Below are positions 6,246 through 25,454 of a DNA stretch of 43,255 bases, piece after piece (within the stretch, counting starts at the first letter, position 1; the number at the start of each line of letters is the position of its first letter). The notes below the pieces were generated by a model. It was not told the origin of the DNA and made no database searches. It worked only from the letters and a program-made list of their open reading frames with translations. The stretch spans positions 1-43,255 of the forward strand of contig DATALK010000184.1 of assembly GCA_036261085.1 (NCBI GenBank), in the 5' to 3' direction. The position numbers and the translations under genes are program-made. Source of the stretch: Phototrophicaceae bacterium (GTDB taxonomy: Bacteria > Chloroflexota > Anaerolineae > Aggregatilineales > Phototrophicaceae).

Positions 6246-6617
6246 TTAGCGAACCGCGCTTTTCATCATCCGAATGCCCAGGTCACGCACCTGGCTGAAA
6301 GTCGCCGGTTTAATCAGGATCAAATCCACATCCGCCCGCACCGCTTCGGCCATCCGCGCATCCGCCGAAGCCACGATAATCCGGGTTTCCTGGAGGCGTT
6401 CATCCGCGCGAACTTGGGCCAACAGTTCGGTTCCGACCACGCGCGGCAGATGTAAGTCCAGCAGGATTAAATCCGGCACCACTTCACCCAAACGAACCTG
6501 CGCTTCATCGCCGGTGGAGATGACCTCCGTTTCATATCCGGCCACTTGCAGGGCCGTCGCAAAAATCGTTGAGGCATCAAAATCATCCTCGATTATCAGG
6601 GCCAGTTTACCGGTCAT
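6246..6617 (-). CDS. Single-domain (CheY-like) response regulator
   Basis: LIIEDD, PDLILLDLHLP phospho-acceptor Asp, VASA, IKP; no output domain. ATGA overlap with the kinase stop. Confidence 0.92.
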   Translation of the reverse strand: MTGKLALIIEDDFDASTIFATALQVAGYETEVISTGDEAQVRLGEVVPDLILLDLHLPRVVGTELLAQVRADERLQETRIIVASADARMAEAVRADVDLILIKPATFSQVRDLGIRMMKSAVR

Positions 6618-8317
6618 TTTGCTTCCTCCTGTACGGGAGCTAAAGGCAGTACGACGGTAAACGTACTACCCTGTCCAACTTCACTCTCTAAATGAATTTC
6701 GCCTTGCAGAAGATGGACTAACTGTTTAACGATGGACAGTCCCAGCCCTGATCCCATCGTATCGCGGGTACTGGGGTCATCTACCTGACGAAACGCTTCA
6801 AAAATGTAGGATTGTGCGTCACGCGGAATGCCCATGCCCGTATCTTTGACCGCCAGTGCCCAATGGGTTTTGTCGGCCAGATACATTCGTACACTGACAC
6901 TCCCCTGTTTAGTGAATTTAACTGCGTTCCCCGTTAAATTCAGCAAAATCTGGCCCAATCGCTGGGCATCACTAACCAGTGTTGTGGGAACTTCCGGTTC
7001 GATCTCACAGGCAAACGTTAACTTTTTATTGGTCGCCAGAATGCTGGCAACCGATTCAACTTCTTTGAGCAAATCCTGTGGGCTGAAGGGCGCCAGATGA
7101 ATGGTGAGGCGGCCTGCTTCAATCTGCGCCTGATCAAGCAGGTTATTAATCAGGCCCAACATACGTTTGGTATTTGCCATCATCCGTTCTACCGTCCCGC
7201 GCTGTTTGGGTGTCAGCGGCCCATAAACCGATTCCAGCAGCATATCCGAATAGCCCAGAATAGCATTTAACGGGGTGCGCAGTTCATGGGACGACATCGA
7301 AAGCAGCGTGCTTTTCATACGATCCAGTTCGGCCTCGCGGGTGAAATCACGGAACACCATGACATTCCCCATAATCCCGCCACCGGGATTGCGCACTGCC
7401 GCAAAACTGACCGATAACATCTTCGCGCCCCAGCGAAATTTCATGCCCGGCTTGGTGAGTTCAGCGCCGGTTAATGCTCGATCCGCCAGGTCACGATCTG
7501 CATCTGCCACATCATCGCGCATCAAGGTTCGAATATCAGAATTCAGAATTTCGGCTTCTGACCGTCCGAGGAGCTGAGCGATGGACGGATTAGCGACAAT
7601 CGCCCGCTTCTGGTTATCAAAAACAATGACGCCATCCGCAATGGATTTCAAAATGGCCTGGTTACGCCCCGACTCAATTTGTTCGCGCCACAGGGCTTCC
7701 GAAAGGTCTTTTGTACGTTGAGCGACCCGCTGATCAAGTTCATAGTTAACAATTCGCAATTCGCGGAGCGCCTGTTCCAGGCTGCGGGCCGATAACCAGG
7801 AAACCAATGCCACGATAAAAAATGCTAAAATTATGGGAAGATTAGGCACATAATTGATGCTGAGCGCAATCCCGATACTTAACAGGCTACTCAACCCGGC
7901 GAACAAAAAACTTGTCCAGGGCCGCAGCAAAACACTTGCCATCAGCGTGGGAATAACAAAAATAAAAACGCTCCGACCAGCAATGACCTGAGATGGCTCG
8001 TCCGAAAAGACGGCCAACAAAGTGAACAGGAGCAAAAACACGATACTGGCAATCGTTCCTGAGTAATAACGATTAATCAGGAAAATGATAATTATGCCGA
8101 TTATCGCCACCACACCTGTACCGTATAGCAGCGCAATTTCCAACTCACTGCCGGTCACTCCGGTCAAGGCAATCACCACTGTCGCCCCAATAAGCATCAC
8201 AACGACTACGCCTAAGAGGCCGAGCAGCAGAATACTAAGCAGTTTTCGACGGCGGGCATCCTCCGGGTCAGTTGTCGGAATCTCTAACCACCGCTGTAGC
8301 ACAGCAGAAATTAACAC
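6614..8317 (-). CDS. Membrane sensor histidine kinase (about 6 TM + PAS + HisKA + HATPase)
   Basis: SIADGVIVFD..IVANP (PAS); SHELRTPLNAI H-box; NLTGNAVKFT, DTGMGIP, GSGLGLSIV. GTG start with GGAG RBS overlaps the cyclase stop by 7 nt. Confidence 0.93.
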   Translation of the reverse strand: MLISAVLQRWLEIPTTDPEDARRRKLLSILLLGLLGVVVVMLIGATVVIALTGVTGSELEIALLYGTGVVAIIGIIIIFLINRYYSGTIASIVFLLLFTLLAVFSDEPSQVIAGRSVFIFVIPTLMASVLLRPWTSFLFAGLSSLLSIGIALSINYVPNLPIILAFFIVALVSWLSARSLEQALRELRIVNYELDQRVAQRTKDLSEALWREQIESGRNQAILKSIADGVIVFDNQKRAIVANPSIAQLLGRSEAEILNSDIRTLMRDDVADADRDLADRALTGAELTKPGMKFRWGAKMLSVSFAAVRNPGGGIMGNVMVFRDFTREAELDRMKSTLLSMSSHELRTPLNAILGYSDMLLESVYGPLTPKQRGTVERMMANTKRMLGLINNLLDQAQIEAGRLTIHLAPFSPQDLLKEVESVASILATNKKLTFACEIEPEVPTTLVSDAQRLGQILLNLTGNAVKFTKQGSVSVRMYLADKTHWALAVKDTGMGIPRDAQSYIFEAFRQVDDPSTRDTMGSGLGLSIVKQLVHLLQGEIHLESEVGQGSTFTVVLPLAPVQEEAK

Positions 8318-9786
8318 GTCCGAACTCCTAACTCTTGAGAGACCAGCGTAAGGGCACTAATTATGGCGGACTGCACTACTAACGTCGGACAATACAAACA
8401 TTTACCAATCCATAAAGGCACATAAGGTGGAGCCTGATGTTCAGCCAACCAGGTCGCTCCGCGTCGCAGCACCGGCTCTGGCACGGGATGCCCATGCCGC
8501 CGCCAAACAACCAGGGCCTGCAAACAATAGGCCGTTTCTTCCGCCGATGCGCTGAACCACCCCCACGACCCATCAGGATTTTGTGAGGTTAAAATCCATG
8601 TGACCGCATCTTCAATTAAGTCATCCAGATAATCCACACAGGCAATAATCGCGTGCGTGGTAGGGTAATAAGGCGATACATGCCATTTATCGAACCAGAA
8701 TTGAGTGTTATACAGAAACCGCCGGATTTTCTGGACAGCGGGATGCTGTCGCTCAAATCCAGCTTGTCGCAGTGCCCCCAGAACATGAATGTTAGCGCTG
8801 ACGGAGGGATTAGCTTCTAACAGAAAACACTTAAAATAATCACTGCTCTCAAAAGCCATCAGGGGGCTTATATCCTGCTGCCGTCCATAGCGCAGCACCA
8901 CCTCACCAATTACGCTGGTCATATCTGAATCAGGCACACTATAACCCGCCCCATAGCCAGCGCCCTTATCCGGTATCCAGGCCGATTCCAGAAAATCGAG
9001 GTGCGGTTCAACCAACGCCTGAAGTTCACTATCCCCCGAATCGGCCAGGTGGAGATTCCACAAAGTCCAGGCCCGTTCAAAGTTATCAAACGGTGCGACA
9101 TCGGGGATACCGCCATCGCCATTACTTAGCCCTCGCAAATAGTTCATGGCAACCGCATCCTGGCGTATCTGGAGAACAAAATAGGCTGTTGCTGATGGAC
9201 TGTGCCCTAACGAACCATTCGCTTCCTGCAACCGGTCTACATCCAGCAATCGTTGCGAGTCAGTCCCGGCCATCTCCGCCGAAAAGGCCAGGGTCACATA
9301 ACGATTAATCAAACCACCCGGCAAGGCGTTCAATTTGGCCGCCCGCTGTTGGTCAAGCCGGGTCATCTCGCCATCTTCCCACCGCGTAATTAAACCTAAC
9401 GATTCGGCTTCGGCGAACAATGTTGGCGCAATCAATTCAAAACCAATGGTTTCAATCATCGCCTGGTTTCCTAACGTCCGAACCGTCGTCTCCAACGCCT
9501 CTTTGGCGCGGGCCAGGCGCGGCACATCCTGCTTCTCGCCACAATGTGCCAGAGTAACAGCCGCCGCCAACGTACAAATTAGCCGGTCATGGTAATAACC
9601 TGGGTTTTCCGCCCCCCAGCTACCGTCTGCTAATTGATGATGGCGCAGCCAAACCAGCGCTTCGTTACCAACCGGTTCATCCAGCTGAGACAGGCGGGCG
9701 ACCCAAGCGGTATCGTAAGCGGTACTCATCATGTGACCGGAACCAATTGTTTTTAATAAATCACGAGCATCGCGCAAAAGCCCCAT
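8311..9786 (-). CDS. Class II (beta-gamma) diterpene cyclase, Rv3377c / Haur_2145-like
   Basis: STAYDTAWVARL, QLADGSWG, IGFELI, QEANGS..SPSATA, DSDMTS (DxDD-type), DKWHVSPYYPT, QNPDGSWG, EETAY, LWIGKCLYCP. ATG 9786 with GGAG RBS. Confidence 0.9.
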   Translation of the reverse strand: MGLLRDARDLLKTIGSGHMMSTAYDTAWVARLSQLDEPVGNEALVWLRHHQLADGSWGAENPGYYHDRLICTLAAAVTLAHCGEKQDVPRLARAKEALETTVRTLGNQAMIETIGFELIAPTLFAEAESLGLITRWEDGEMTRLDQQRAAKLNALPGGLINRYVTLAFSAEMAGTDSQRLLDVDRLQEANGSLGHSPSATAYFVLQIRQDAVAMNYLRGLSNGDGGIPDVAPFDNFERAWTLWNLHLADSGDSELQALVEPHLDFLESAWIPDKGAGYGAGYSVPDSDMTSVIGEVVLRYGRQQDISPLMAFESSDYFKCFLLEANPSVSANIHVLGALRQAGFERQHPAVQKIRRFLYNTQFWFDKWHVSPYYPTTHAIIACVDYLDDLIEDAVTWILTSQNPDGSWGWFSASAEETAYCLQALVVWRRHGHPVPEPVLRRGATWLAEHQAPPYVPLWIGKCLYCPTLVVQSAIISALTLVSQELGVRTC

Positions 9787-9794
9787 TATCTCCC

Positions 9795-10724
9795 CTATAG
9801 TTCGTTGAATTGAGACGGTAGTTCGACCTGTGGTAACGGATACCAATAACCGCCACGCGGCTGCTTAGCCCCAATACCCAGTGTCTTACCCTGATTTAGT
9901 CGGTACAGTTCCCGCATGAGTGCCATATCGGTTGGCGTCAGTTCACTATAATCCGTTTCTTTCGCCCGCCGGGTAAAAAGATGATCGTAGAGAATTTCAC
10001 GCAGTTGGCGTTCCGTCAGGTATAAGGAAGGACTGACCGTAAAATACAGGTCTTCATTGCCGTCTGCCAGCAGCGGCACATCAAACTCGCAAAACTTATC
10101 AAACCCAATAAAAAGACCGAGCGGCGGCAGCTTTTCGCCATAATACATTTCCACTAGGTCGTGTTTATCCGGCGCGCGGCCATGTTCAGTATAATACCTG
10201 ATGCTGAGTTCAGCGGTAGTTTCAACCGCATCATTCGCACAAACCCCGAACAAAAGACGATGACCATCATAGGCGGCGGTTCTGGCCGTCACTGCCGCAA
10301 ATTGGTCTAACAAATACCGATACGGAGTGTCGGCAAAGAACTGACGGTAATCGCCATAAAAATGCACGCGCACCTGACACGCATCGTAGAAATTCAGAAA
10401 ATAGGGATGGCTGGTTAAAAGGGCTAATCCTTGCACCATCATCTCGATATAGTCTTGCCCACGTTCGCCCAAATCTGGGCCAAAAACAGGCGCCAAAAGC
10501 GTGTGAACACCATGATCGAAAAACAGGCGGCACAGTGACACCATCCGCTGAACCATCGTGTCCAGATAATCGGTAACAGCATCTTGCCCACTCAGCAAAT
10601 CCTGTTCCAGCATATACCAACGCCGGGTTCCGTTAATGGGAAAACCACAGACCAGCGGGCCGCTGGCTTGTACCAGTGCTGCGACTTCAGCTACCGACAA
10701 ATTGAGGAAAGTTTCCGAGTCCAT
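9795..10724 (-). CDS. Rv3378c-family diterpenyl-diphosphate transferase/synthase (cis-prenyltransferase fold)
   Basis: Collinear with Rv3378c as recalled: FL.L....VA..V...GP.V..FP.(N/D)GTRRW, F.HG...L.P.F, RG..YI, V.FYGDY, H.L.FGV..NDA.E, YYGE, FIGF..F..FD.PLL, LYFTV.PS.Y.TE..LR.ILYDH, DYS. Confidence 0.9.
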   Translation of the reverse strand: MDSETFLNLSVAEVAALVQASGPLVCGFPINGTRRWYMLEQDLLSGQDAVTDYLDTMVQRMVSLCRLFFDHGVHTLLAPVFGPDLGERGQDYIEMMVQGLALLTSHPYFLNFYDACQVRVHFYGDYRQFFADTPYRYLLDQFAAVTARTAAYDGHRLLFGVCANDAVETTAELSIRYYTEHGRAPDKHDLVEMYYGEKLPPLGLFIGFDKFCEFDVPLLADGNEDLYFTVSPSLYLTERQLREILYDHLFTRRAKETDYSELTPTDMALMRELYRLNQGKTLGIGAKQPRGGYWYPLPQVELPSQFNEL

Positions 10725-10750
10725 AAATCCGAGTTCCTTGTTTTGGATAA

Positions 10751-12115
10751 CTAAGTGTGTTGTGTGAATACAGACGTATATCCAGTGGCTTCGACGTCAG
10801 ATGAACCAAACGCTATCGGCCACAACCGGCGGATAACAAACAGATAAAAAATAACCGTTGTGACCATAACAACGGGTAGATAAATGCTGATATCCGTTAG
10901 CACGTAGGATTCAGGGGTAATCACTTCCTCTCCCAGCGCCAGATAACTGATAAGCTGCATCATATCCACCAGGGCATATGGCAAAAAGACTAACCAGACC
11001 ACAAATTTTGTTTTTCGACCTTTTAGCGTTGCCAGCAGATAGGTAAAAATGACAATCCCGAGCGCCAGTTCCCACACAATATCCAACCAGATAAACGCGG
11101 CCAGATACAGGGCAAAAGCGGCATCCAGGCCATTTTGAGCGGTAAACTTCAACGGCTTGCGCAGGCAGTGCAGGCCAATCACGCCCAACGGGATGAGCAG
11201 CATAATTTTTACCGCCAGCGCCAGCGTTAATGTACTGGCACTCTCACCAAACAAATAAATCAGAATTTGCAGGATGGAGTGGTTGTAACCCAAAAATGGC
11301 ATCTCTGGGCCGCGCCAGGGGAAATGCCCGCTGCCCATACTCGCCAGCAGTTGAAAGTACGCTTGATATTGTTCCATGCCGTAGGGCGGCCCAACCAACA
11401 AAATGGTCACGCCAACAATCGCGGCATATAGCCCCAGACTCAGCGCCATCAATCGGATAAAAAAGCGCGGTTGTCCGAGCAGCAGGGGCAGCGCCCCCAA
11501 CAACACCCACTGGGGCTTGGTATGAATGGCGATGGTAAACCATAAAACCGCCCAGCCCAGCTTATTTGCCAGAATCGCGTCAATAATCAACGAACCGAGC
11601 AGGGCCATCAAAATATAAACATTCAGATACGCCAGATCGCTCCAAAAAGTCCCAAAGACGAGCCAGATTGGCAGCGTTTTTGCCAACATAACATTGGCCG
11701 ACTCCAATTTCAACCGCTGGAAAATCCGCCCCCATAACAAGTACAACAGAACGTAAATCGCCACATGAACCACAGTACTGACGCCAGCGACCACCATTGG
11801 CGGAAACCACACCAGTGGGGTCAAGACCAGCGCATACGCGGGCGGATATTGGTACAGTTCCATATGTTCCAGTGGAATCGGCGGATATAAATTTTCGTGC
11901 CGTTGCAGATGGTCAATGGCCTCCAGGTACAGGCGTAAATCATCCGGCAGCGAAGGCGTCGCCGATAAAGTTTCGGACGGGGTCATCAGGCCCAACAGCA
12001 GCACAATCTGCATAACGAACCGCAGCGCCGCATAAATCAGCGCGCCCATCAAAAGGCGATTGTACCACTTGGATTCGGCCTGGTACTGCCGGATATAGTG
12101 CAGTTGATTAAACAT
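10751..12115 (-). CDS. GT-C membrane glycosyltransferase, GT87/DUF2029-like
   Basis: DLRLYLEA...ENLY...LYQYPPAYALVLTPL, N..IL, AIHTKPQ, NHSI motifs; multiple TM helices. Confidence 0.8.
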   Translation of the reverse strand: MFNQLHYIRQYQAESKWYNRLLMGALIYAALRFVMQIVLLLGLMTPSETLSATPSLPDDLRLYLEAIDHLQRHENLYPPIPLEHMELYQYPPAYALVLTPLVWFPPMVVAGVSTVVHVAIYVLLYLLWGRIFQRLKLESANVMLAKTLPIWLVFGTFWSDLAYLNVYILMALLGSLIIDAILANKLGWAVLWFTIAIHTKPQWVLLGALPLLLGQPRFFIRLMALSLGLYAAIVGVTILLVGPPYGMEQYQAYFQLLASMGSGHFPWRGPEMPFLGYNHSILQILIYLFGESASTLTLALAVKIMLLIPLGVIGLHCLRKPLKFTAQNGLDAAFALYLAAFIWLDIVWELALGIVIFTYLLATLKGRKTKFVVWLVFLPYALVDMMQLISYLALGEEVITPESYVLTDISIYLPVVMVTTVIFYLFVIRRLWPIAFGSSDVEATGYTSVFTQHT

Positions 12116-12132
12116 CGCGTCCCTGAGGCTTC

Positions 12133-13170
12133 CTAGTTAGCAGCTAATTGATGGACGACATATCGAAGCACAGGGTTGCTGGCCGCAAACACAATTTGGT
12201 TATTATGATTGGCCTGAAAACCAAGCCGCTGCTTGATTTCATAAGCGCCAGTGCCGCCGTACAGCACCCGCCCCCCTGCCGCCAGTACAGACCGGATCGC
12301 TTCATACAACAACTGAAAATAAACATAATTAACGCTGTAGTCCAGACCCAATAACGCCAGGGTATAAACATCCCCATCGCCCAATACCAGACCACAACCA
12401 ACCAGGCGCTCATCCATGCGCGCGGTAATCCAGATGGGCTGCGCCAGGCCCGCGTTTGCCAATATCTGGCGCGTATACGGATGCGGCGCGGAGTTATATT
12501 TACAATTAACGGCGTCAATCAATCGCACCGCTTCATCTATCCGGCTTACTTCCGCTGCCGTCTCGATCACAATTCCCAGATCACGCGCGCGGTTGCCGTG
12601 CCGGTGATAATCCTTGCGCGCGGACTTATCCAACCGGCTCAGATACCCCTCAAAATCTTCACCGTCGAACTGTAAAACAGTTTCCGCTTCCGAGAACTGA
12701 TAGGTATCAAAGGCAGCGGGAGCTGTCAATGCCGGTTCTAAATAATCAAAAATCACAAACGAGGCCCGGGACTGCCGGGCCATCTGCAAACCGAACTGGG
12801 TCAACTGCTCGAAGGCCGCCCGGCGCAACGTTTTATCAGCCGGTAAAATAAGACCGGCGGCTTTTGCCAGCGGCGAACGGCAGAAAAACAACGGCGCACG
12901 GTAAAAGGCGTGCCGCGCCAATGATCGCAGCGGGCTGGACTTAATCGGCAGCGGTTCTTTCCGTGTCAGCCAGAAGGTGGCCCGCGCTACCGGTTCCCCA
13001 TCCCAATCCAGGGTAACATAAGTCGGAGCATCATCAGCCAACACTGTTTCACCAAACCGATACCAGTGGTAACTGGTAAATGGCATCTTCTGACTCAGGA
13101 AATCCCACTGTTCCTGGCCGATTTCCGCTACCCGCCGCATAACCCGAATATCAGGGTTGAAGTCCAACAT
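12133..13170 (-). CDS. Tandem-GNAT (FemAB / Acetyltransf_6-like) acyl or aminoacyl transferase
   Basis: EQWD.L...PF....W, DFEGYLSRLDKSARK, LGLDY...YVYFQLLYEAI..V......LYGG.GAYEIKQRLGF. Likely ATG 13170. Confidence 0.75.
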   Translation of the reverse strand: MLDFNPDIRVMRRVAEIGQEQWDFLSQKMPFTSYHWYRFGETVLADDAPTYVTLDWDGEPVARATFWLTRKEPLPIKSSPLRSLARHAFYRAPLFFCRSPLAKAAGLILPADKTLRRAAFEQLTQFGLQMARQSRASFVIFDYLEPALTAPAAFDTYQFSEAETVLQFDGEDFEGYLSRLDKSARKDYHRHGNRARDLGIVIETAAEVSRIDEAVRLIDAVNCKYNSAPHPYTRQILANAGLAQPIWITARMDERLVGCGLVLGDGDVYTLALLGLDYSVNYVYFQLLYEAIRSVLAAGGRVLYGGTGAYEIKQRLGFQANHNNQIVFAASNPVLRYVVHQLAAN

Positions 13171-13231
13171 TACAAACCTTATGACTGAGGAACTAAAATT
13201 TAATAGGTTTAATAGCAACTGCCCTACTCAA

Positions 13232-13254
13232 ATTATATGAGAATCTGGGAGAAT
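13232..13254 (-). promoter_or_regulatory. Candidate promoter of the diterpene operon
   Basis: Perfect TATAAT (13237-13232) directly preceded by the direct repeat ATTCTC-ccag-ATTCTC; no good -35. Confidence 0.4.
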
Positions 13255-13331
13255 TTACGTTAAGATTCGCGGACATCAGTACTATACGACTATTATCCTA
13301 AATTTTGTAAATAATAGAGAAGATGGAATTT

Positions 13332-13363
13332 AAAAAGGGTCGAGCAGACTACTCGACCCTTTT
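13332..13363 (-). terminator. Rho-independent terminator (bidirectional geometry)
   Basis: AAAAGGGTCGAG-7nt-CTCGACCCTTTT, 8 nt past the stop at 13372; insulates the diterpene operon. Confidence 0.85.
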
Positions 13364-13371
13364 GGTCTCAT

Positions 13372-14700
13372 TCATTTATTTAAAGGGCTGTGAATCATAC
13401 AGACCCCGGTGGCACACTCATCCGGGAAGCGGGTTCGCCGGTCAGCAATCCAACGGTAAACTTGCGGTCCAATCGCTGATGCCAGCGGCAGATAAGTTAA
13501 GATGACCAGCGGCCAGAACGCTGGAAGCCGCTTCCAAATCTCGCGGAAAGCCTGGTAGCCCGTACAAATCGTGTTATCCGGCAGCAGGATGTGCATTTCC
13601 TGCAAGCCAGCAGCCAGGGTTATTTCCGGGTGGAGCATGTGCAGCCGGGACCAATGCGTTTCCAGCGCATAGTATTCCAACCGCTCGCCCCAATCAAAAT
13701 AGTTCAGCGTGGTCATGGAACGAATACATAATGGACAGCGACCATCAAAAAAGATCGCGGGTTTACGGGTTGGTGCGCTTCGTTGGAAATGTTCCGCCAC
13801 CCGATTCCAGGGAATAAATACCGCGTACAATGCCAAGAACGTAAAGAAGGGCGCGCGCTGAATGAGGTAAATACTGGTGTGAAACAGCACTCCAAACGGA
13901 ATGTAAAACCAGACTAATTGCGGGAACAGCACGACCAGAAAAAATGTCAATTCAAAGATAATGCTCACGCACGATAAAATCACGGCCAGCCCGGTACTCT
14001 GGCTTAACCACACGCCCAACGGACTGCCCCAACGCAAGCCATCTTGCAGCATATAATATTGGAGCGTGTAGCCATTCATCCAATCCAGGTGACCAGCACC
14101 GGTGGTCATTTTGCTGATCGTCGCGGATAAATAAATCAATACGAACAACCACTGCACCAATCGCAGCGGCCAAAGTGCCAACCGGCTTTGTTCCTGGGTC
14201 ACGAGCGCGGGTTGAAACTGTGACTCGGCGGCATTCTGTTTCTGGCGGCGCATCAAATCATCCACCGAGAGTACCGCGCCGCACGGGCTGAACGCCAGGG
14301 CCACCAGCGCGATCATCATAATCGCTTCCGGGTGATGAAACTCACCGAACGAATACAAAAACGCCTGCATAAACAGCGCGCCCACAGCAAAACCAAACAG
14401 GGTGTAATTGGTCTTAAAACCAATCAAGGCCGCGACTCCGGCCACAATCGTGAGCATAAAAATCAGGGAAAGTAAGGAGGCTGACGGGCGCAAACCCGTA
14501 CCAAGAGTGAGCAGGCGCAGTACCGGCAGCGGTTGGTACAAAAAATCCGGCGTGGTCGCCCGCAGCATCAACGCCGTATGATGCCCGCTGACCAGCAGCC
14601 AGAAAACCTGAAAGCCGACGACGATTAACCGCGTGACCGCCAGATTAAACAGGGATGCAGGGGGAAACCAGTAACGTTCCCATACTTTTAGAACGTTCAT
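13372..14700 (-). CDS. HTTM-like membrane protein fused to a DCC1/DUF393 thiol-disulfide oxidoreductase domain
   Basis: N-terminal W..YWF.P....NLA..R, YSFGEFHH, LSVD, IYLSATISK, W.NG.TLQ; C-terminal FFDGRCPLC, EMHI, GY.AF, YRWIADRR. Confidence 0.75.
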   Translation of the reverse strand: MNVLKVWERYWFPPASLFNLAVTRLIVVGFQVFWLLVSGHHTALMLRATTPDFLYQPLPVLRLLTLGTGLRPSASLLSLIFMLTIVAGVAALIGFKTNYTLFGFAVGALFMQAFLYSFGEFHHPEAIMMIALVALAFSPCGAVLSVDDLMRRQKQNAAESQFQPALVTQEQSRLALWPLRLVQWLFVLIYLSATISKMTTGAGHLDWMNGYTLQYYMLQDGLRWGSPLGVWLSQSTGLAVILSCVSIIFELTFFLVVLFPQLVWFYIPFGVLFHTSIYLIQRAPFFTFLALYAVFIPWNRVAEHFQRSAPTRKPAIFFDGRCPLCIRSMTTLNYFDWGERLEYYALETHWSRLHMLHPEITLAAGLQEMHILLPDNTICTGYQAFREIWKRLPAFWPLVILTYLPLASAIGPQVYRWIADRRTRFPDECATGVCMIHSPLNK

Positions 14701-15173
14701 CAGTCCACCTCTACTTGTTTGATAATCTCGGTTTTACCGTCTTGCCAGCCGTCTTTGCCTAAAACCATCGCCTTATTTTCCAGGCGCAAACCTGATAATT
14801 GCCGGTTGACGCGAGCGTGATAGGCCGTGACATAGGTTTTAATCAGCGCGCGGTCTTCGGTTAAGAGCGCTTCAACGACTGCCGGAAACTGAAATACGGT
14901 CAGGCCCAAATCCTGCGGCTGAATCATAACCTCCCGGCCATTCGGCAAAAGGCCATAGACGCTGTATTGATTTAAGGTCTCCCCCGGATAGTGCGGCAAA
15001 CTGTACATGGGATAATGGACAAACGGCCAACCTGCCGGTTCACACACCAATTGAGGCCAGCCAAACCGTGCCGGGGGGCAAAGCAGGCGAAACGTCACCG
15101 CTGCCTGAAATACCAAAACCAACCCAACACCCAATGAAATGATCGGCATTGCCGCCTTTTTGATGCGCTCCAT
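14700..15173 (-). CDS. Membrane-anchored hypothetical protein, partner of the HTTM gene
   Basis: GGAGG RBS; N-terminal TM; WPFVHYPMYS motif; TGATG 1-nt overlap with the downstream gene. Confidence 0.7.
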   Translation of the reverse strand: MERIKKAAMPIISLGVGLVLVFQAAVTFRLLCPPARFGWPQLVCEPAGWPFVHYPMYSLPHYPGETLNQYSVYGLLPNGREVMIQPQDLGLTVFQFPAVVEALLTEDRALIKTYVTAYHARVNRQLSGLRLENKAMVLGKDGWQDGKTEIIKQVEVD

Positions 15174-15399
15174 ATACGCCTCCTTTTAATACCGGCATTA
15201 ATCTCAACCACCGTTACGCCGCCGCGTTATCGCTTGACCTTTTAAGCCTGGCGATTCTTAGGGGCCATAGCATCCGGCTGCCAGAATCCAAACCACCCCA
15301 GTGGGCGACATCGTTGTTATCCATGATTTAGGGGAAGTGGACGGGGATCAAACTGACGGTTCTCACGGCTAAAAACCGCCCTATCGCTATAAAAGGAAC

Positions 15400-15427
15400 G
15401 GGCAGTCCATCAATCAGACTGCCCTAC
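15400..15427 (-). repeat. GTAG-family REP palindrome
   Basis: Minus strand GTA-GGGCAGTC-tgattgatg-GACTGCCC directly after the GT2 stop. Confidence 0.7.
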
Positions 15428-15433
15428 CTGAAA

Positions 15434-16459
15434 TCATTCCCAGAGATCTTCCGCCGTGCGTTCCAAACGTTCGCGCACCATATAGATAGGCCGCCCTCGC
15501 GGTTCGTAATACACCCGCATCACCAGTTCTGCCACCAGACCGGTGCTGATGAGTTGAATGCCCAGGATGACCAGCACCACTGCCAACAGCAGCAGCGGGC
15601 GATCACCAATCCCCTCACCCACAAAAAACTTAACATAGGCGAGATACAATCCCATCATTGCGCCTAGACCCGTCACCACAAACCCCAGCCCACCAAAAAC
15701 ATGCAGCGGCTTAGTTGCAAAACGCAGCAAAAAGCTCACGGTAATCAAGTCCAGAATGACGCGGAAAGTCCGGCCAATGCCGTATTTACTTTTACCAAAC
15801 CGGCGGGCGCGATCATTAACAGGCACTTCCGCAATCCTGACCCCCATCCAACTGGCAAGCGCCGGAATAAACCGGTGGAGTTCGCCGTACAGCCGGACAT
15901 TTTTAACCACATCCCGATGATAGGCTTTTAATGTACAGCCATAATCATGCAGCGCGACGTGGGTTGTACGAGAAATCAGGCGGTTTGCCAGCATGGATGG
16001 CAGACGGCGGCTAAAAAATGGCTCTTTGCGGTTCATCCGCCAACCACTGACAATATCATAACCCTCTTCGAATTTCTCCAGCAGTTGGGGAATATCATGC
16101 GGATCATTCTGAAGGTCGGCATCAGTTGTAATCACTATCCGCCCCTGAGCCGCCTCAAAACCAGCGGCCATCCCCGCCGTCTGCCCAAAGTTCTGCCGCA
16201 GTCGGATAATGCGCCAGCGCGGATCATGCTCGTGGACCGTTTTCAATCGGGCGAAACTCTCATCCCGGCTGCCATCATCCACCACAATAACTTCGTAGCT
16301 GTAGGGGAGCTGACTCAAAACTTCGGTTAGCTCGTTATACAACGAAGGAATACTCTCCGCCTCATTATAGAGCGGGATAACTACCGAAATATCGGTTGTA
16401 GTTTCATCTAAGATAAACGGTCCGACGTGTTGGTTAATTGAAAGTATCTTCTGTTCCAC
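15434..16459 (-). CDS. GT2 polyprenol-phosphate glycosyltransferase (ArnC/GtrB-like)
   Basis: SVVIPLYNE, VDDGSRD, NFGQTA, DADLQNDP, HDYGCTLKAY, ELHRFIP, two C-terminal TMs. GTG 16459 with GGAG RBS. Confidence 0.9.
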   Translation of the reverse strand: MEQKILSINQHVGPFILDETTTDISVVIPLYNEAESIPSLYNELTEVLSQLPYSYEVIVVDDGSRDESFARLKTVHEHDPRWRIIRLRQNFGQTAGMAAGFEAAQGRIVITTDADLQNDPHDIPQLLEKFEEGYDIVSGWRMNRKEPFFSRRLPSMLANRLISRTTHVALHDYGCTLKAYHRDVVKNVRLYGELHRFIPALASWMGVRIAEVPVNDRARRFGKSKYGIGRTFRVILDLITVSFLLRFATKPLHVFGGLGFVVTGLGAMMGLYLAYVKFFVGEGIGDRPLLLLAVVLVILGIQLISTGLVAELVMRVYYEPRGRPIYMVRERLERTAEDLWE

Positions 16460-16559
16460 AACCCTATCTCCATCCCTGACAACCACTAAAAACCGTACCG
16501 GAATGCACACGCTACCATCGCCAGCAACCGCTGCGCCAACAAGTCTTTTTACGTTCTTT

Positions 16560-16830
16560 AGATTTTGCCTGATTTTAACTTGCAAAAAACTTAATTGAGG
16601 AAATGAAAATTTTCTTGTTTTAAGAAGTTAAATTGTAACACACCTTTTCGCTTTTTTGATTCAATCCCCAATACTGTCCTAAATTGAGGGCTTATTCCAA
16701 TTTTAAACTTATCAATCTCATTATTTTTATTTAATGAAAGCCAAAAATAGTTGTAAGGTTTATGCAAGTCGTAAATTTTATACTCGCGCCAAAAAGTTTC
16801 AGGTTTATTGTAATTCACAAAATGGATGGG
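16560..16830. promoter_or_regulatory. Very AT-rich divergent promoter region
   Basis: Poly-A/T tracts between the divergent GT2 and methyltransferase starts. Confidence 0.55.
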
Positions 16831-16842
16831 ATTGAAGTTTTG

Positions 16843-17571
16843 ATGGTTGATTTTCCCGAAACAGCCGACATTGAAACCGCGTCAGAAGACTATGCTCGCC
16901 GCTTCTCCGGCGCGGTTGGCGCGTGGTTTCTGAACATCCAAACAGCAGCCACGCTGAAAATGCTGGCGGATTATCCCTGCGCCAGTGTCCTGGATGTGGG
17001 CGGCGGTCACGGTCAGATTGCCGGAGCCTTAGCCGACCACGAATATCAGGTGACGGTGCTGGGCAGCACCGAAAGTTGCAGCGCCCGCATTCAAGACTTG
17101 ATTACGGCACGCCGTGTTACCTTTCAGGTCGGCAATGTGCTGGACATCCCCTACCCCGATCAGCACTTTGATGTGGTCATCAGCTACCGCCTGCTGCCCC
17201 ATGTCACCCAATGGGAGCCATTTCTGGCGGAACTCACGCGCGTTGCCCGCCAGACAGTGGTGCTGGACTATCCCGAAGTCCAGAGTATCAATTACATCGC
17301 GCCGTATTTGTTCCGCTTTAAGAAACAGCTTGAGGGTAATACCCGCACCTACACCTGCTTCAAACAAGCCGACTTATTGCGGGTCTTCCAGCAGCATGGT
17401 TTCACCTATGCCGACGTCTACAAGGAATTTTTCTTCCCGATGGTGCTGCATCGTAAACTCCAAACACCGGGAGTGTCTTCAGTCCTGGAAACCGGCAGCC
17501 GCGCGCTCCGCTTAACGAGTCTGCTGGGGTCGCCCGTCATCCTGAAAGTCGTTCGGGAGAACCCAAAATGA
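16843..17571 (+). CDS. Class I SAM-dependent methyltransferase
   Basis: VLDVGGGHG, IPYPDQHFDVVIS, FLAELTRVAR. Confidence 0.85.
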   Translation: MVDFPETADIETASEDYARRFSGAVGAWFLNIQTAATLKMLADYPCASVLDVGGGHGQIAGALADHEYQVTVLGSTESCSARIQDLITARRVTFQVGNVLDIPYPDQHFDVVISYRLLPHVTQWEPFLAELTRVARQTVVLDYPEVQSINYIAPYLFRFKKQLEGNTRTYTCFKQADLLRVFQQHGFTYADVYKEFFFPMVLHRKLQTPGVSSVLETGSRALRLTSLLGSPVILKVVRENPK

Positions 17572-18755
17572 AAATTTTGTTTTTAGCGCCCATGCCGGTT
17601 TATCAGGAACGCGGTTCACCGATTGCCGTGAAGTTGCTGCTGGAAGTGTTATCGCAGCGCGGCTGTGAAGTGGATGCGCTTGTTTTTCATGAAGGCGAAG
17701 ATTTTCAACTGAAGGATTTGACCTTATACCGCACCCCGGCGCTGCCATTTGTGCGGAATATTCGGCCCGGTTTTTCGCTGAAAAAACTCGTTTGTGACGT
17801 CTTCCTGTTTTTTATAGCTCTGCGGTTAATCCTCACCCGCCGCTACCAGTTCATTTACGCGGTGGAAGAATCCGCCTTCATGGCGCTGATTTTTAAAGCC
17901 ATTTTTCGTATCCCCTATATTTATGATATGGACTCCTCCCTGGCCCAGCAGATGGTCGAAAAATACGTCTTTCTCCGCCTGGCTGCGCCAGTCCTGAGTT
18001 TTTTTGAGGGGTTAGCTGTCAACCACGCCGCCGCCGTTGTGCCGGTCTGTGACGCGCTGGCCGATGTGAGCGCGCAGTATCACCCGCAAAAAACCGTTGT
18101 CCTCTATGATGTGCCGCAATTGGATAAAGGCGGGAAGACTACAGAAAATCTCCGCCAGCAGCTCGGAATCACCGGTGTGCTGGCAATGTATGTTGGCAAT
18201 CTGGAAACCTACCAGGGTCTCGATTTACTGCTGGCAAGTTTCGCCCTGGCCCAAACGCGCATAAATAATCTGAGTCTGGTCGTTATCGGCGGCGCGCCGG
18301 AACACATCGAACGCTATCAGCAGCAAACCACCGCCTTGAATCTCCAACCGCAGGTGCATTTTATTGGGCCAAGACCGGTAGATCAGTTATCCGCCTATCT
18401 GGAACAAGCCGATATTCTGGTTTCACCGCGCATCAAAGGCATTAACACGCCGATGAAGGTTTACTCTTACCTTGCCAGCGGCAAGCCGGTATTAGCCACC
18501 GATCTCCGCACCCATACCCAGATACTTGACCGGCAGGTAGCGGTACTGGCCGCCCCTGAAGCTCCCGCTTTTGCCGAAGCGTTGGTGCAGTTGGCAAGTG
18601 ATGCGCCGCTGCGCCAGCAGTTGGGGGCCAACGGCCAGCGGTTAATTGCTGAAAAGCACAATTACGCGGCTTTCCTGGCCGCCGTTAACGGCCTGCTGGA
18701 TTGGATGACGGGTTCACTGCCACCGCGCCAGGAATACGAGGGACAGCATGTTTAG
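17568..18755 (+). CDS. GT4 glycosyltransferase
   Basis: MKILFL, YVGNL..YQGLDLL, ADILVSP, TPMKVYSYLASGKPVLATD. Confidence 0.9.
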   Translation: MKILFLAPMPVYQERGSPIAVKLLLEVLSQRGCEVDALVFHEGEDFQLKDLTLYRTPALPFVRNIRPGFSLKKLVCDVFLFFIALRLILTRRYQFIYAVEESAFMALIFKAIFRIPYIYDMDSSLAQQMVEKYVFLRLAAPVLSFFEGLAVNHAAAVVPVCDALADVSAQYHPQKTVVLYDVPQLDKGGKTTENLRQQLGITGVLAMYVGNLETYQGLDLLLASFALAQTRINNLSLVVIGGAPEHIERYQQQTTALNLQPQVHFIGPRPVDQLSAYLEQADILVSPRIKGINTPMKVYSYLASGKPVLATDLRTHTQILDRQVAVLAAPEAPAFAEALVQLASDAPLRQQLGANGQRLIAEKHNYAAFLAAVNGLLDWMTGSLPPRQEYEGQHV

Positions 18756-20442
18756 GAATCTGAACGCCCTCGCCCAAAAACAATTTGATGTGTTGGTCAT
18801 CGGCGGCGGCATTTATGGCGCTGCCGTAACCTGGGAAGCCGCCTCGCGCGGCCTCTCGGTAGCGCTGGTGGAAAAAGACGACTTCTGCGGCGCAACTTCC
18901 GCCAACAGCCTCAAGACCATTCATGGCGGCCTGCGTTATTTGCAGCACGCCGACTTCCAGCGAATGCGTGAGTCTATCAGCGAACGCACCACCTTAATGC
19001 GGATCGCCCCACATCTGATTCACCCGCTGCCGGTGCTGGTTCCCACCTACGGCCACCGCCTGAAGGGGCGGGAAGTCATGGCGCTGGCAACTTTCGCCAA
19101 TGACCTTATCAGTTTTGACCGCAACTTACCCGACCCGGAAAAACGCCTGCCGCATGGATACACCATTTCTCGGCGCGAATGTTTACAACGACTGCCCGGT
19201 ATTCCCGAAAACAATCTGACCGGCGGCGCCGTTTTTTATGATGCGCAGGCCTATAACACGGAACGACTGGTCATTGACTTCCTGCATTCCGCCGTCCAAT
19301 CGGGCGCGGAAGTCGCCAATTATGTCCAGGCTGTCGGCTTCCGGCGGCAAGCGAACAAAGTTATTGGCATTGAGGCCCGCGACCATCTGACCGGCAGCAC
19401 CTTTGACATCCAGGCCAGGATGATTATTAACACGGCTGGCCCCTGGGTGAATTCGGTCTTGGGTTTATTAGGCCCCGCCCAACCGCCGGCCCAATTAGCC
19501 CTGTCTATGAACATCATCACCCGCCCGCTGTTTGAGCGGTTCGCCGTTGGCCTCTCCGCACCCAAAAGTTATCAGGATGCGGATGCGCTGCTCAATAAAG
19601 GCAATCGCCTGTTGTTTTTCTCGCCCTGGCGTGATCGTTCCCTGATTGGCACCACCGCCGATCCCTATCATGGCGCACCAGATAACTTCGAAATCACGGA
19701 AACCGAGGTGCAGCGTTTCCTGAATGAAATCAATCAGGCGTATCCCGCTGCTAATTTGACGCTCGATGACGTGACATTTGTCCACGCGGGCCTGCTGCCA
19801 TCACCGGGGATTGACCACAAATCGGGAGATGCCCGCATTGCCAAACACTATCAACTGATTGACCACCGCCAGGCCGGGATTGACGGCCTCCTTACCGTGG
19901 TGGGCGTCAAATACACCACCGCGCGCCATGTCGCCGAAAAAGTTATTGACCACGTATCCACGCGCCAGGAAAAACCATTGCCCAAATCTACCTCAGCCAT
20001 GACTAGGTTGCACGGCGGGCAGATTGACCGTTTTGATGACTTTTTGCAGACAGCTGTTCAGCAGCAGCCGTGTGGCCTGGACGCCAGTACCCTGCGCCAT
20101 CTGGTTTACACCTATGGCTCGAACTATCCCACCGTCTTGCAATCCTTTGATATGCAGACAACCGCCAACCTGGGAATGACCCGATCATTACTCCAGGCGG
20201 AGACGCGACACGCTGTTCGCCAGGAAATGGCGCAAACCTTAGGGGATGTCTTGTTCCGGCGGACGGATTGGGGTAGCGCCGGACATCCCGGCGCGGAGGT
20301 TGTCGCCTTTACTGCCGAGGTTATGGCGGCGGAATTAGGCTGGACACCCGATCACACCCGGCAGGAAATTGAAGCCGTAAATACCCGATTTGCCTTTGGA
20401 CGGGGGACATATGCAGCAGCATTGGCCGGTTCAACTCTTTAA
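18748..20442 (+). CDS. FAD-dependent glycerol-3-phosphate dehydrogenase/oxidase family protein
   Basis: DVLVIGGGIYG, ATSANSLKTIHGGLRYL, NTAGPW, LIGTT, KYTTAR..AE, EMA.TL.DVLFRRT. Confidence 0.85.
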   Translation: MFRNLNALAQKQFDVLVIGGGIYGAAVTWEAASRGLSVALVEKDDFCGATSANSLKTIHGGLRYLQHADFQRMRESISERTTLMRIAPHLIHPLPVLVPTYGHRLKGREVMALATFANDLISFDRNLPDPEKRLPHGYTISRRECLQRLPGIPENNLTGGAVFYDAQAYNTERLVIDFLHSAVQSGAEVANYVQAVGFRRQANKVIGIEARDHLTGSTFDIQARMIINTAGPWVNSVLGLLGPAQPPAQLALSMNIITRPLFERFAVGLSAPKSYQDADALLNKGNRLLFFSPWRDRSLIGTTADPYHGAPDNFEITETEVQRFLNEINQAYPAANLTLDDVTFVHAGLLPSPGIDHKSGDARIAKHYQLIDHRQAGIDGLLTVVGVKYTTARHVAEKVIDHVSTRQEKPLPKSTSAMTRLHGGQIDRFDDFLQTAVQQQPCGLDASTLRHLVYTYGSNYPTVLQSFDMQTTANLGMTRSLLQAETRHAVRQEMAQTLGDVLFRRTDWGSAGHPGAEVVAFTAEVMAAELGWTPDHTRQEIEAVNTRFAFGRGTYAAALAGSTL

Positions 20443-21235
20443 TAAATCCAGGCTCAAGCAGCGCAAATACCAAGAAATCACAGCGCTGTTAGGCAACTTT
20501 GACGGTCTCCATTGTCTGGACATTGGCTCCGATAATGGCGTGATTAGTTATCTGCTGCGCCAGCAGGGTGGCATCTGGAAAAGTGCCGACCTGGAAAAGC
20601 TGACGGTGGATTCGATCCGCGAACTGGTGCAGACCGATGTTTACCAGATTAACGGCCAGGAGACCCCTTTTGCCGATAACGAATTTGATGTTGTCGTGAT
20701 CGTGGACTTTCTCGAACACATCCCGGATGATCGCGCCTTTGTAACCGAGTTATACCGCATTCTCAAACCCGGCGGCACGCTCATCATCAATGTGCCGCAC
20801 CTTAAAAACTCGCTGCTACGCCGCTTCCGGTATGCCCTCGGCCAGACAGACGAAAAACACGGTCATTTGCGTCCTGGCTACACCATTGAAACCATCCGGC
20901 AGCTTCTCAGTGACCGCTTTGCGGTGGATACCTCCAAAACCTATTCCAAATTTTTCTCAGAGTGGATTGACACGCTGATTGTCTGGACGGTCAATCTGGC
21001 AAAAGGCGGTCAGGCCAATGCCTCAAAAAAAGGGCTGGTGATTACCGGGAATGATTTAAAGAACTACCAGAAAATGTTCCGACTCTATTCGCTGATTTAT
21101 CCGGTGGTTTGGCTCTTCTCCAAACTCGATACGCTATTGTTTTTTTCCACCGGTTACGTGTTGATTGTCAAAGCGCATTCTAATAAGTCACCGGTTGCGG
21201 TGATGGTACATGCAGAACGGGAGATTCAAGTATGA
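20411..21235 (+). CDS. Class I SAM-dependent methyltransferase
   Basis: CLDIGSDNG, PFADNEFDVV, LEHIPDD, RILKPGG. Confidence 0.85.
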   Translation: MQQHWPVQLFNKSRLKQRKYQEITALLGNFDGLHCLDIGSDNGVISYLLRQQGGIWKSADLEKLTVDSIRELVQTDVYQINGQETPFADNEFDVVVIVDFLEHIPDDRAFVTELYRILKPGGTLIINVPHLKNSLLRRFRYALGQTDEKHGHLRPGYTIETIRQLLSDRFAVDTSKTYSKFFSEWIDTLIVWTVNLAKGGQANASKKGLVITGNDLKNYQKMFRLYSLIYPVVWLFSKLDTLLFFSTGYVLIVKAHSNKSPVAVMVHAEREIQV

Positions 21236-22236
21236 CGGAAACGAAGCCAACACAGCGTATTTTTGTCACCGGCGGGACGGGTTTTACCGGCAGCCATCTG
21301 GTAAAACGCCTGCTTCAGCGCGGGCATGAGGTGGTGACAGTAGATAATCAGAAGGGGATGTTCTACGATGAACTGGTGAAACTTGGCGCACAAGTCACTA
21401 TCGGCTCGGTCACAGATCGGGACTTGATGTTCAAGCTCACCGAAGGCTGTGACACGGTGCATCACCTGGCCGCGGCTTTCCGGGCAATTAATCTCCCCAA
21501 GGAGATGTATTGGAATATCAACGTCGAAGGCACGCGCCATCTGCTCGATGCCGCCATGCAATATAACGTCAAAAAGTTTGTCTATTGCAGCACATGTGGT
21601 GTTCACGGCAATGTCCAGCAGCCGCCAGCAGCGGAAACCGCGCCCATCACCCCTGCCGACTACTACCAGTACACCAAGTACGAAGGGGAAAAGGTCGCGC
21701 AGGACTATATCCAGAAAGGGCTGGATGTCACCATTCTGCGGCCCGCAGCAATCTACGGCCCCGGTGATCCTGAACGTTGGGTGATGTTGTTTAAACACGC
21801 CGCGCGGGGTCGCTTCTTCATGTTCGGCTCCGGCAAGGCCACTTATCATCCCCTCTATATTGAAAATCTGGTGGATGCCTTTGAACTCGCCGCCGAGAAA
21901 GAAGCCGCCAGAGGCCAAACCTACCTCATCGCCGACGAATGTTATTACACCTTAAACGATCTGGTGCGCACCGTTGGCGACGTTTTAAACCTCAAGGTGC
22001 AGATTACCCATCTCCCCTTCTGGCCGTTGTGGACTGTCGCCCTGGCGACAGAAATCGCCTGCCTACCTTTCCGCATTTCACCCCCGATTTTCCGGCGGCG
22101 CGTGGATTGGTATCGCCAAAACCGCGCCTTTGACATCAGCAAAGCCAAGCGCGAATTAGGTTACAACCCGCGCATTGATCTGAAAACCGGCTTAACGCAA
22201 ACGGCTCAGTGGTATCGGCAGCATCAATACATCTAA
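21232..22236 (+). CDS. NAD-dependent epimerase/dehydratase (extended SDR)
   Basis: VTGGTGFTGS, HLAA, YQYTK (YxxxK), RPAAIYGPGD. Confidence 0.9.
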   Translation: MTETKPTQRIFVTGGTGFTGSHLVKRLLQRGHEVVTVDNQKGMFYDELVKLGAQVTIGSVTDRDLMFKLTEGCDTVHHLAAAFRAINLPKEMYWNINVEGTRHLLDAAMQYNVKKFVYCSTCGVHGNVQQPPAAETAPITPADYYQYTKYEGEKVAQDYIQKGLDVTILRPAAIYGPGDPERWVMLFKHAARGRFFMFGSGKATYHPLYIENLVDAFELAAEKEAARGQTYLIADECYYTLNDLVRTVGDVLNLKVQITHLPFWPLWTVALATEIACLPFRISPPIFRRRVDWYRQNRAFDISKAKRELGYNPRIDLKTGLTQTAQWYRQHQYI

Positions 22237-22250
22237 CGAAAGGGCTGACT

Positions 22251-24182: not shown

Positions 24183-24211
24183 ACGAGCGACCCAATCAAA
24201 GGGGGTTCAGA

Positions 24212-25183
24212 TTGTTCAAACAGCTTCGACCTTATCTCACGATTGCCATAACCGTGCTGTTACTCCTCCTGGTCTTCCATAATGTTGGCCTGGAGGAGTT
24301 AGTCGGAACCCTGGCCCAGGCCGAGATCGAATTCATTTTGCTGGCCCTGTTCATCGGGCCAGCTCTAAACTTTATCAGCGCCGTGAAATGGCAGCTCCTG
24401 CTGCGTTCTCAGGGAATTGATTTACCCATCGGGTATCTGTTTAAGCTCTATCTGGTCGGCATCTTCTTTAATAACTTTTTACCGACCAACGTCGGCGGCG
24501 ATGTCATCCGCAGTTATGAAGTCGGAAAACGGATTAACAATCAGCCTTCGGGCCTGGCCTCCGTTTTTATGGAACGGCTGACTGGTTTTGTAATTCTCGT
24601 GCTGGTCGCCTGGATTGGATTTTTAGTTCACCTGTCGGTGGTAAATCATCCTGTTCTAACGGCGGTTATGCTCATTGCGGTCATCGGCTTGGCAGGCATC
24701 GCCTGGTTAGCGCTGGATGCCCGTCTATTACGCTTGGTTGAACAGCTGCTGCCCTTCGCCCCGGCCCAGAAATACATCGCCGTGTTCAAGAAATTCCAGA
24801 CGGCACTGCAAGGCTATCGCCAACAACCCAGAGCTTTAGGAACCGCCTTTGCCCTCTCGTTTGTCTTTTACCTGGGCAACATTTTTTATGCCTTTGCCGC
24901 TTCCCAGGCGTTTCACCCGGAAATACTGCTGCTCGATATGGTCTTTATCATGCCCATCACGATGGTTGTCGCCATGATGCCCTTCACCTTTAACGGGATT
25001 GGCCTGCAAGAATGGTCGTATGTGTTGTTATTTCCGTTAGTGGGCGTCCCCGCATCCGTTGGCTTATCCGCCATTATCCTGATTCGTGCCGTGACCTTAG
25101 TGACGGCGGTTGTCGGTGCCTTCTTTTACATGCAGATCAAGGCTAAAGGGGGCGGAACCCTTTCGGCCAACGCTGCGCCGTAA
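24212..25183 (+). CDS. LPG-synthase-TM / flippase-like membrane protein
   Basis: KW..LL, FFNNFLPTNVGGD..R, SVFMERL.G, P.TFNGIGLQE. Start uncertain (TTG 24212 or 24179). Confidence 0.8.
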   Translation: MFKQLRPYLTIAITVLLLLLVFHNVGLEELVGTLAQAEIEFILLALFIGPALNFISAVKWQLLLRSQGIDLPIGYLFKLYLVGIFFNNFLPTNVGGDVIRSYEVGKRINNQPSGLASVFMERLTGFVILVLVAWIGFLVHLSVVNHPVLTAVMLIAVIGLAGIAWLALDARLLRLVEQLLPFAPAQKYIAVFKKFQTALQGYRQQPRALGTAFALSFVFYLGNIFYAFAASQAFHPEILLLDMVFIMPITMVVAMMPFTFNGIGLQEWSYVLLFPLVGVPASVGLSAIILIRAVTLVTAVVGAFFYMQIKAKGGGTLSANAAP

Positions 25184-25222
25184 CTTAGCGCTGGTATTGC
25201 ATCGGTAGGGGTGGCGCGTAGA

Positions 25223-25413
25223 CCCATAGGCATCAAGTTAAGGTTGCGGTGCGGTTGCTGACGCTGAACGCCATCCGACTACCTCGGGATAAGCCGCCTC
25301 AAGGCGGCTGAAACGCTCGCGGATGGCCCACAGCAGCCCACTTGAAGCGGGCGTAAAAACACCGTAGCCAGGGGACTTCCAGCCCCTGGCGACCTTATCT
25401 TGATGTATATGGG
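25223..25413. mobile_element. MITE-like non-autonomous element (~191 bp) with 25-bp TIRs and flanking direct repeat
   Basis: Left CCCATAGGCATCAAGTTAAGGTTGC vs reverse complement of right end CCCATATACATCAAGATAAGGTCGC (21/25). GGCGCGTAGAC repeated at 25213-25223 and 25415-25425. Confidence 0.85.
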
Positions 25414-25454
25414 CGGCGCGTAGACTGCCCGCAGACCGTAAAAGGTAAATAATT

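Follow-up and report, generated by a model that had tools for sequence, protein, structure and literature searches.

What a set of diterpenoid genes is doing in one operon with a membrane-bound sensor kinase, and whether the kinase perceives the diterpenoid, is the question raised by a locus of a Phototrophicaceae bacterium (phylum Chloroflexota, class Anaerolineae). It lies in a stretch of 43,255 nucleotides (nt) of contig DATALK010000184.1, the whole of which was analyzed and is called here the window. Six genes on the minus strand encode, in order of transcription, a FemX-like tandem GNAT protein (12133..13170; 345 amino acids, aa), a GT87 (GT-C) membrane glycosyltransferase (10751..12115; 454 aa), an Rv3378c-like diterpenyl transferase/hydrolase, named TT in this work (9795..10724; 309 aa), an Rv3377c-like class II diterpene cyclase (8311..9786; 491 aa), a histidine kinase (6614..8317; 567 aa, GTG start), and a single-domain response regulator (6246..6617; 123 aa). 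A previous sequence-only reading had described six co-oriented genes with gaps of 17, 26, and 8 nt and overlaps of 7 and 4 nt, and a recount of the minus-strand open reading frames (ORFs) gave exactly these values, including the overlap of the kinase start (8317) with the cyclase stop (8311). Purine-rich stretches resembling ribosome-binding sites precede the starts of the operon genes. The gene identities proposed by that reading also hold by Pfam and structure matches; what it had overlooked is the PAS domain of the kinase and the fact that the regulator is a receiver only (Pfam).

The adjacency of the kinase is not unique to this genome, and the synteny is kept across many Anaerolineae families. 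A search with TT gave 1986 relatives at E<=0.001, and 38/401 genomes of the class contain a match. We have compared 118 loci, i.e., all 38 non-self TT matches of the 401-genome scan, which are unbiased for the Asn motif described below, and the best 80 of 273 relatives, which are biased to it; removal of 10 duplicates left 108 loci. Where at least 5 kb was available downstream, the cyclase was found in 67/72 loci and a kinase with homologous N-terminal 200 residues (the six-helix sensor) in 63/72. Among the motif-unbiased loci, the sensor kinase stands beside TT in 18 of 26. On the other side, the 88 loci with at least 4 kb upstream contain the GNAT in 44 cases, the GT87 in 38, either in 64, and both in 18; the full set of six genes is present in 14 of the 63 loci having both flanks. 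A kinase adjacency confined to this genome, which would have refuted the sequence-only reading, was thus not observed. The sensor profile matched 62/401 genomes at 1e-8 and, at a cut of 1e-39 chosen post hoc, 33 genomes, 26 of them among the 44 cyclase genomes (the unpublished genome G389 is counted in these tallies). Because TT loci served to build the profiles, the scores of linked genes are inflated, the rarity elsewhere being unaffected; kin genomes do not count as independent cases, and in each genome only part of the candidates received a score. We conclude that the operon, in which a dedicated sensor kinase is encoded together with diterpenoid synthesis, is real and conserved.

Which diterpenoid would be made is suggested by the residues of the two terpene enzymes. 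The cyclase is homologous to Rv3377c (E=1.3e-128 against PDB 6vpt) and shows squalene-hopene-cyclase-like domains in Pfam. The catalytic middle Asp of the DxDD/DxDT motif is D288 in the sequence DSDM, and it is present in 51/51 type A relatives. The base Y479 of the M. tuberculosis enzyme MtHPS, together with F171 and W380, corresponds to Y465, F168, and W368 of the window cyclase, and the A475 site holds G461, likewise a non-basic residue. The match of Y465 to Y479 is weakly diagnostic because Y479 is conserved irrespective of the product, according to the available part of PMC9814783. At the Y328 site the window cyclase has a phenylalanine, F321, and the change Y328F in MtHPS yielded labda-8,13-dienyl diphosphate alongside the halimane (PMC9585517, in its accessible sections). 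With Phe at this site and the other residues retained, the predicted product is most likely halimadienyl diphosphate, labda-8,13-dienyl diphosphate being possible.

TT is homologous to Rv3378c over its whole length (E=4.1e-66 against PDB 3wqk), and Pfam gave no match on this protein. It retains R34, R35, Y53, and Y92, equivalent to R37, R38, Y51, and Y90 of Rv3378c, i.e., the diphosphate-binding arginines and both tyrosines. The P-loop Asp34 of Rv3378c is replaced by Asn31. Asn occupies this site in 61/61 close relatives and in 26 of the 38 motif-unbiased loci, and among 94 full-length 50% representatives, of the 150 listed, there are 43 Asn vs 38 Asp, indicating a state of the family and not decay. 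In P0124 and P0133, an Asn-type TT and the cyclase form one fusion protein. Asp34 is said to have been found essential in Rv3378c by Layre in 2014; D34 is not mentioned in 10.1101/2020.04.25.060590. With Asn at this site, adenosine transfer by TT is not to be assumed. A scan of the genome contigs with the single TT protein gave no match, an alignment-based scan succeeded, and no TT match was present in the plasmid collection. Among the Asp-type relatives, P0180, P0189, P0190, and P0194 form a clade, possibly of amoebal origin, with low-complexity Ser/Asn/Gln tails that look eukaryotic. P0224 is a distant TT fused to a HAD hydrolase, a HAD gene follows the kinase at locus L109, and Rv3376, beside the Rv3377c-Rv3378c locus of M. 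tuberculosis, is a HAD gene too.

The slot between TT and the kinase has variable contents: a type A cyclase, as in the window, a type B cyclase, a reductase (L133), or a flavin monooxygenase (L148). The type B cyclases are a clade of 13 members, 8 of which have His at the F171 site, and in MtHPS a His there favours copalyl diphosphate (PMC9585517, available part). The reductase (L133:9878-11080) belongs to the geranylgeranyl-reductase family, and in L156 and L163 cyclase and sensor are together without an adjacent TT. No single protein partner of the sensor is therefore constant, which fits a coupling through a small molecule. Ten further cyclase regions were inspected. L171, L176, L177, and L178 combine a distant TT with polytopic sensors and, being outside the training set of the sensor profile, support the linkage of sensor and terpene genes; L175 and L179 end too soon, and L180 covers the flank upstream of the cyclase-kinase pair L156. 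A cyclase-kinase fusion in L044 and a Pyr4-like-cyclase-kinase fusion in L045 were not accepted, as both ORFs span runs of N. In L045 (10352-12025), a Pyr4-like transmembrane terpene cyclase domain (E=1.5e-16) comes directly after TT, in frame with the kinase across the N gap.

The two upstream genes of the operon would act on the terpenoid. The GNAT protein, with Pfam FemAB_like and Acetyltransf_6 over cut-off, shows a tandem GNAT fold of the FemX type; the best Foldseek matches of its model are FemX, Sbb17/Sba18, FemA, and MprF (E 1e-12 to 1e-9), and the acyl-CoA-using tandem GNAT 2wpw also scores, at rank 10. It is predicted to be an aminoacyl-tRNA-dependent transferase, the donor being predicted from the model. 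The glycosyltransferase (Pfam GT87, 29 bits, cut-off 25) has only GT87 proteins among its atlas matches (30/30); D59, Y90, N165, and K200 are invariant and Y63 nearly so, and D59, Y63, and K200 are spaced like D58, Y62, and K195 of PimE (10.1101/2024.09.17.613550, available part), a comparison of motif spacing made with no alignment. A sequence search of PDB gave no match for the GT87 profile, and that for the GNAT profile was uninformative. The GT87 subfamily profile was found in 11/401 genomes, 10 of them with TT, and the FemX-like GNAT profile in 21/391, 20 of them with TT. A second, unrelated GNAT swaps with the FemX-like one (37 + 14 = 51/70 loci, never both). Thus, GT87 and GNAT, counted as operon parts by the sequence-only reading, are indeed present and belong to dedicated subfamilies, but related loci may lack them or exchange them for other genes, and they are not fixed parts. 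Upstream genes of relatives encode ICMT-type methyltransferases (24/108 loci), B12 radical SAM enzymes (5 loci), MFS and FtsX-type ABC transporters, and a P450 or a sulfotransferase. Since a sugar, an amino acid, and a methyl group can all cap a hydroxyl, a diterpene alcohol is favoured as the acceptor. Two groups of small membrane proteins without known family also recur inside variant operons (L034:1731-2309 and L108:2138-3127, in 14 and 5 of 108 loci, respectively).

The kinase comprises a membrane sensor followed by PAS, HisKA, and HATPase domains (Pfam and model). The sensor had been described as about six transmembrane segments with no large external loop, and the model agrees, showing six helices with short loops (predicted local distance difference test, pLDDT, 95.8); a plain hydropathy scan found five. 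On the sensor, no Pfam family exceeded its cut-off, MASE6 appearing weakly in 18/66 sensors. The polar motif S-D-x-P...G-R-S is conserved at the predicted outer loop, and P123 and W174 are invariant. What stays constant in the kinase is the six-helix domain; in some copies the PAS domain is missing and receivers are appended, and for the former reason a contact of TT with the kinase through PAS was set aside. Tree distances of the sensor correlate better with those of TT (rho 0.55) than with those of its own kinase core (0.32), in FastTree trees of 67 rows with weak resolution. The receiver protein has D54, S84, and K103 and no DNA-binding domain (Pfam), and therefore this regulator cannot act on DNA directly. 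In genome G322, 99% complete and with neither TT nor cyclase match, an operon-type kinase and receiver (L152:4748-6885) are a candidate receptor-only copy.

From the observed gene layout, homologies, motif residues, and conserved linkage, we infer that the operon makes a polar-capped bicyclic diterpenoid that is sensed in the membrane by its own kinase, working like a synthase-receptor pair; we give this reading a probability of about 45%, and each of its steps is drawn from homology and synteny. Geranylgeranyl diphosphate (GGPP) would be supplied by a synthase encoded elsewhere in the genome and converted by the class II cyclase into a bicyclic diphosphate, likeliest halimadienyl and possibly labda-8,13-dienyl. 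TT would remove the diphosphate, and water or some other small nucleophile would accept the diterpenyl group, the Asn at the Asp34 site making an alcohol, over an adenosine adduct, the first guess. Next, the FemX-like enzyme may attach an amino acid taken from aminoacyl-tRNA, and GT87, working at the outer face, a sugar whose donor is a polyprenyl phosphate, while in relatives methyltransferases, radical SAM enzymes, and exporters would work in place of, or besides, these two. Binding of the product in the bilayer by the six-helix domain would change the autophosphorylation of the kinase, and through the single-domain receiver the signal would reach a relay or an effector whose gene lies elsewhere. 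The sequence-only reading had already proposed a decorated bicyclic diterpenoid lipid that the operon senses, either itself or through the membrane state it changes. This is supported in part: synteny and gene identities hold, the Asp34 site of TT is changed, the tailoring is optional, and the regulator has no DNA-binding domain.

Several further observations weigh against such self-sensing. The sensor is absent at 9/72 TT loci, and the cyclase regions L172, L173, and L174 have neither TT nor sensor nearby. The cyclase type switches 6 times along the tree of TT and 8 times along that of the sensor; the sensor is therefore not clearly tracking the ring skeleton, and the idea that it follows the cyclase type found no support. 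Of the 33 genomes with a strong sensor match, 7 have no cyclase or TT match (the profile A1 is also blank in the sensor-bearing G322 and G071), and sensors from synthase-less genomes nest among operon sensors, as would be expected if these genomes eavesdrop or if the sensor lacks specificity for the product. Many Chloroflexota have weaker relatives of the sensor domain, attached to unrelated outputs. Foldseek on the sensor model found nothing at E<=0.001. With VIA, the four best matches are the six-helix anchors of ImcA, the membrane adenylyl cyclase 6r3q, Rv1625c, and AC5, with Z 9.2-11.4 over 144-171 residues, values that, lying under about 13, may for helical bundles reflect a common arrangement. 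The six-helix anchor design is common to CqsS and LqsS, receptors for lipophilic ligands (PMC4821796, available part); the analogy with CqsS drawn by the sequence-only reading thus finds weak structural support in these cyclase anchors, at scores within the chance range. Finally, the enzyme itself could fail: given its Asn, TT could be weak or inactive.

A different explanation, unlikely in our view, is that the product is a bulk lipid that conditions the membrane, a surrogate of the hopanoid kind, and that the kinase responds to the state of the membrane or to stress with no specific binding. A sensor that tolerates cyclase swaps, even replacement of the cyclase by a reductase, and that persists without synthase genes would suit it, as would aminoacylation and GT-C glycosylation, which are typical of envelope lipids (MprF being among the fold matches); the outer-loop motif with its invariant P123 and W174, however, resembles a defined site, and the patchy distribution of TT together with the exporters of variant loci fits a specialised molecule better. 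It is also conceivable, though improbable, that the product is a terpene nucleoside like 1-tuberculosinyladenosine (1-TbAd), its sugar decorated by GNAT and GT87, with sensing by the kinase optional. The retained arginines and tyrosines of TT, the nucleoside hydrolases in the flanks of 6/108 loci, and the glycoside-type MFS transporters in 17 loci are consistent with this, but Asn prevails at the Asp34 site, the hydrolases may be the genomic background of one lineage, and the other characterised relative, that of Herpetosiphon, leads to O-methylkolavelool (PMC9814783, available part). Regulators are often encoded beside biosynthetic clusters, and unrelated signalling clusters (L149, L150) also contain kinases with the same sensor, so kinase and receiver might instead answer an unrelated cue and be linked because they time the making or use of the terpenoid. 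We regard this as a long shot: the receiver has no means of binding DNA, the kinase start overlaps the cyclase stop, and a single sensor family persists throughout many families of the class.

The diterpenoid operon can be set beside several known systems. It shares with the Rv3377c-Rv3378c locus of M. tuberculosis, which makes 1-TbAd, the adjacency and order of cyclase and cis-prenyltransferase-like transferase, and the equivalents of the acid Asp, F171, W380, Y479, and Y51/Y90; it differs in Asn for Asp34, Phe for Y328, and DSDM for DxDT, and in the added GNAT, GT87, kinase, and receiver. We advise against classifying it as a 1-TbAd locus. The Haur_2145-2147 locus of Herpetosiphon (O-methylkolavelool), from the same phylum, combines, like the window operon, a cyclase, an Rv3378c-like enzyme, and a capping enzyme, and to our knowledge no receptor has been reported for it. 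The available part of PMC9814783, which gives the product of Haur_2145, places that enzyme in another cyclase subfamily. The window GNAT and GT87 have in common with FemX/MprF/Sbb17 transferases and PimE-type GT87 the fold and catalytic-type residues, and differ in being dedicated subfamilies almost confined to diterpene loci. In CqsA/CqsS and LqsA/LqsS, the synthase gene is adjacent to the receptor gene, and the synthase is a pyridoxal-phosphate-dependent enzyme making alpha-hydroxyketones. The window likewise has a six-helix, short-loop sensor kinase beside synthase genes, these being of terpene, GNAT, and GT87 types with no pyridoxal-phosphate-dependent, CqsA-type enzyme. Such a sensor design is the common trait (PMC4821796, in part), and the ligand would here be a terpenoid; the operon does not belong to the CqsA/CqsS family.

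The operon is apparently undescribed: we found no account of this architecture in the searchable literature, which leaves subscription papers largely outside its coverage, and the concern that it had already been characterised was not borne out. We know of no bacterial terpenoid demonstrated to act through its own cognate sensor kinase, nor did literature searches find one. The most relevant survey lists 126 terrabacterial Rv3377c-family cyclases, of which 44% are accompanied by an equivalent of Rv3378c, and kinases go unmentioned in the available text and searchable supplements (PMC9814783; its neighbourhood figure S22 is legible by labels only). As the operon names a ligand pathway and its receptor together, the idea is directly testable, and Longilinea arvoryzae KOME-1 (L092), whose locus comprises MFS, GNAT, TT, cyclase, kinase, and receiver genes, is a cultured carrier. 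This work also supplies a large set of environmental relatives of Rv3377c and Rv3378c, which bear on the role of these genes before the pathogen acquired them (the M. tuberculosis genes are not in the trees used here); an initial search for orthologues outside Mycobacteria had failed, and the M. tuberculosis locus is constitutive and insulated from regulation, according to the accessible part of PMC11476799. A tentative and, as a whole, doubtful extension is that Anaerolineae use terpenoids for cell-to-cell signalling, with a modular operon producing lineage-specific decorated diterpenoids, the six-helix kinase as receptor, and receptor-only genomes eavesdropping like LuxR solos, so that the virulence-lipid genes of tuberculosis would be a remnant stripped of receptor and tailoring genes.

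Regarding the precursor, no polyprenyl synthase is found among the window proteins (Pfam), in agreement with the sequence-only reading. In the same genome, contig C601 has a GGPP-synthase-like gene adjoining IDI-2; its product has Phe 5 residues before the first Asp-rich motif and remained below the cut-off of all named GGPP synthase models. The host genome is 61% complete, and in it neither HMG-CoA reductase nor GcpE was found, and each operon enzyme and the sensor domain are single copy.

The operon is bounded upstream by an AT-rich intergenic region (13171..13330, minus strand), the presumed promoter, with 31% GC vs 55% for the whole window; the AT-richness noted earlier is real, and the promoter label is unverified because a sigma-70 consensus scan found no site there. 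Beyond it, a terminator-like hairpin with A and T runs on either side (13334..13363) closes the upstream HTTM-DCC1 gene. This terminator, proposed from the sequence, is supported by the fold statistics of 13320-13375 (-21.1 kcal/mol, z -4.74, 0/200 shuffles as good), while a consensus terminator scan did not list it; 3' of the receiver gene, the fold test showed no terminator (z -0.85). The SH3 gene downstream and the HTTM gene upstream were excluded from the operon because they never adjoin TT in relatives. The region 13372-29281 holds the HTTM-DCC1 fusion and a large envelope glycosylation cluster encoding GT2, GT4, methyltransferase, asparagine-synthase-like, and PMT-like proteins, which could be the source of a lipid-linked sugar for GT87. 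Farther away (35077-37887), the window encodes a TIR-NACHT-FGE-sulfatase-like protein of 936 aa, possibly a STAND protein of defence or signalling.

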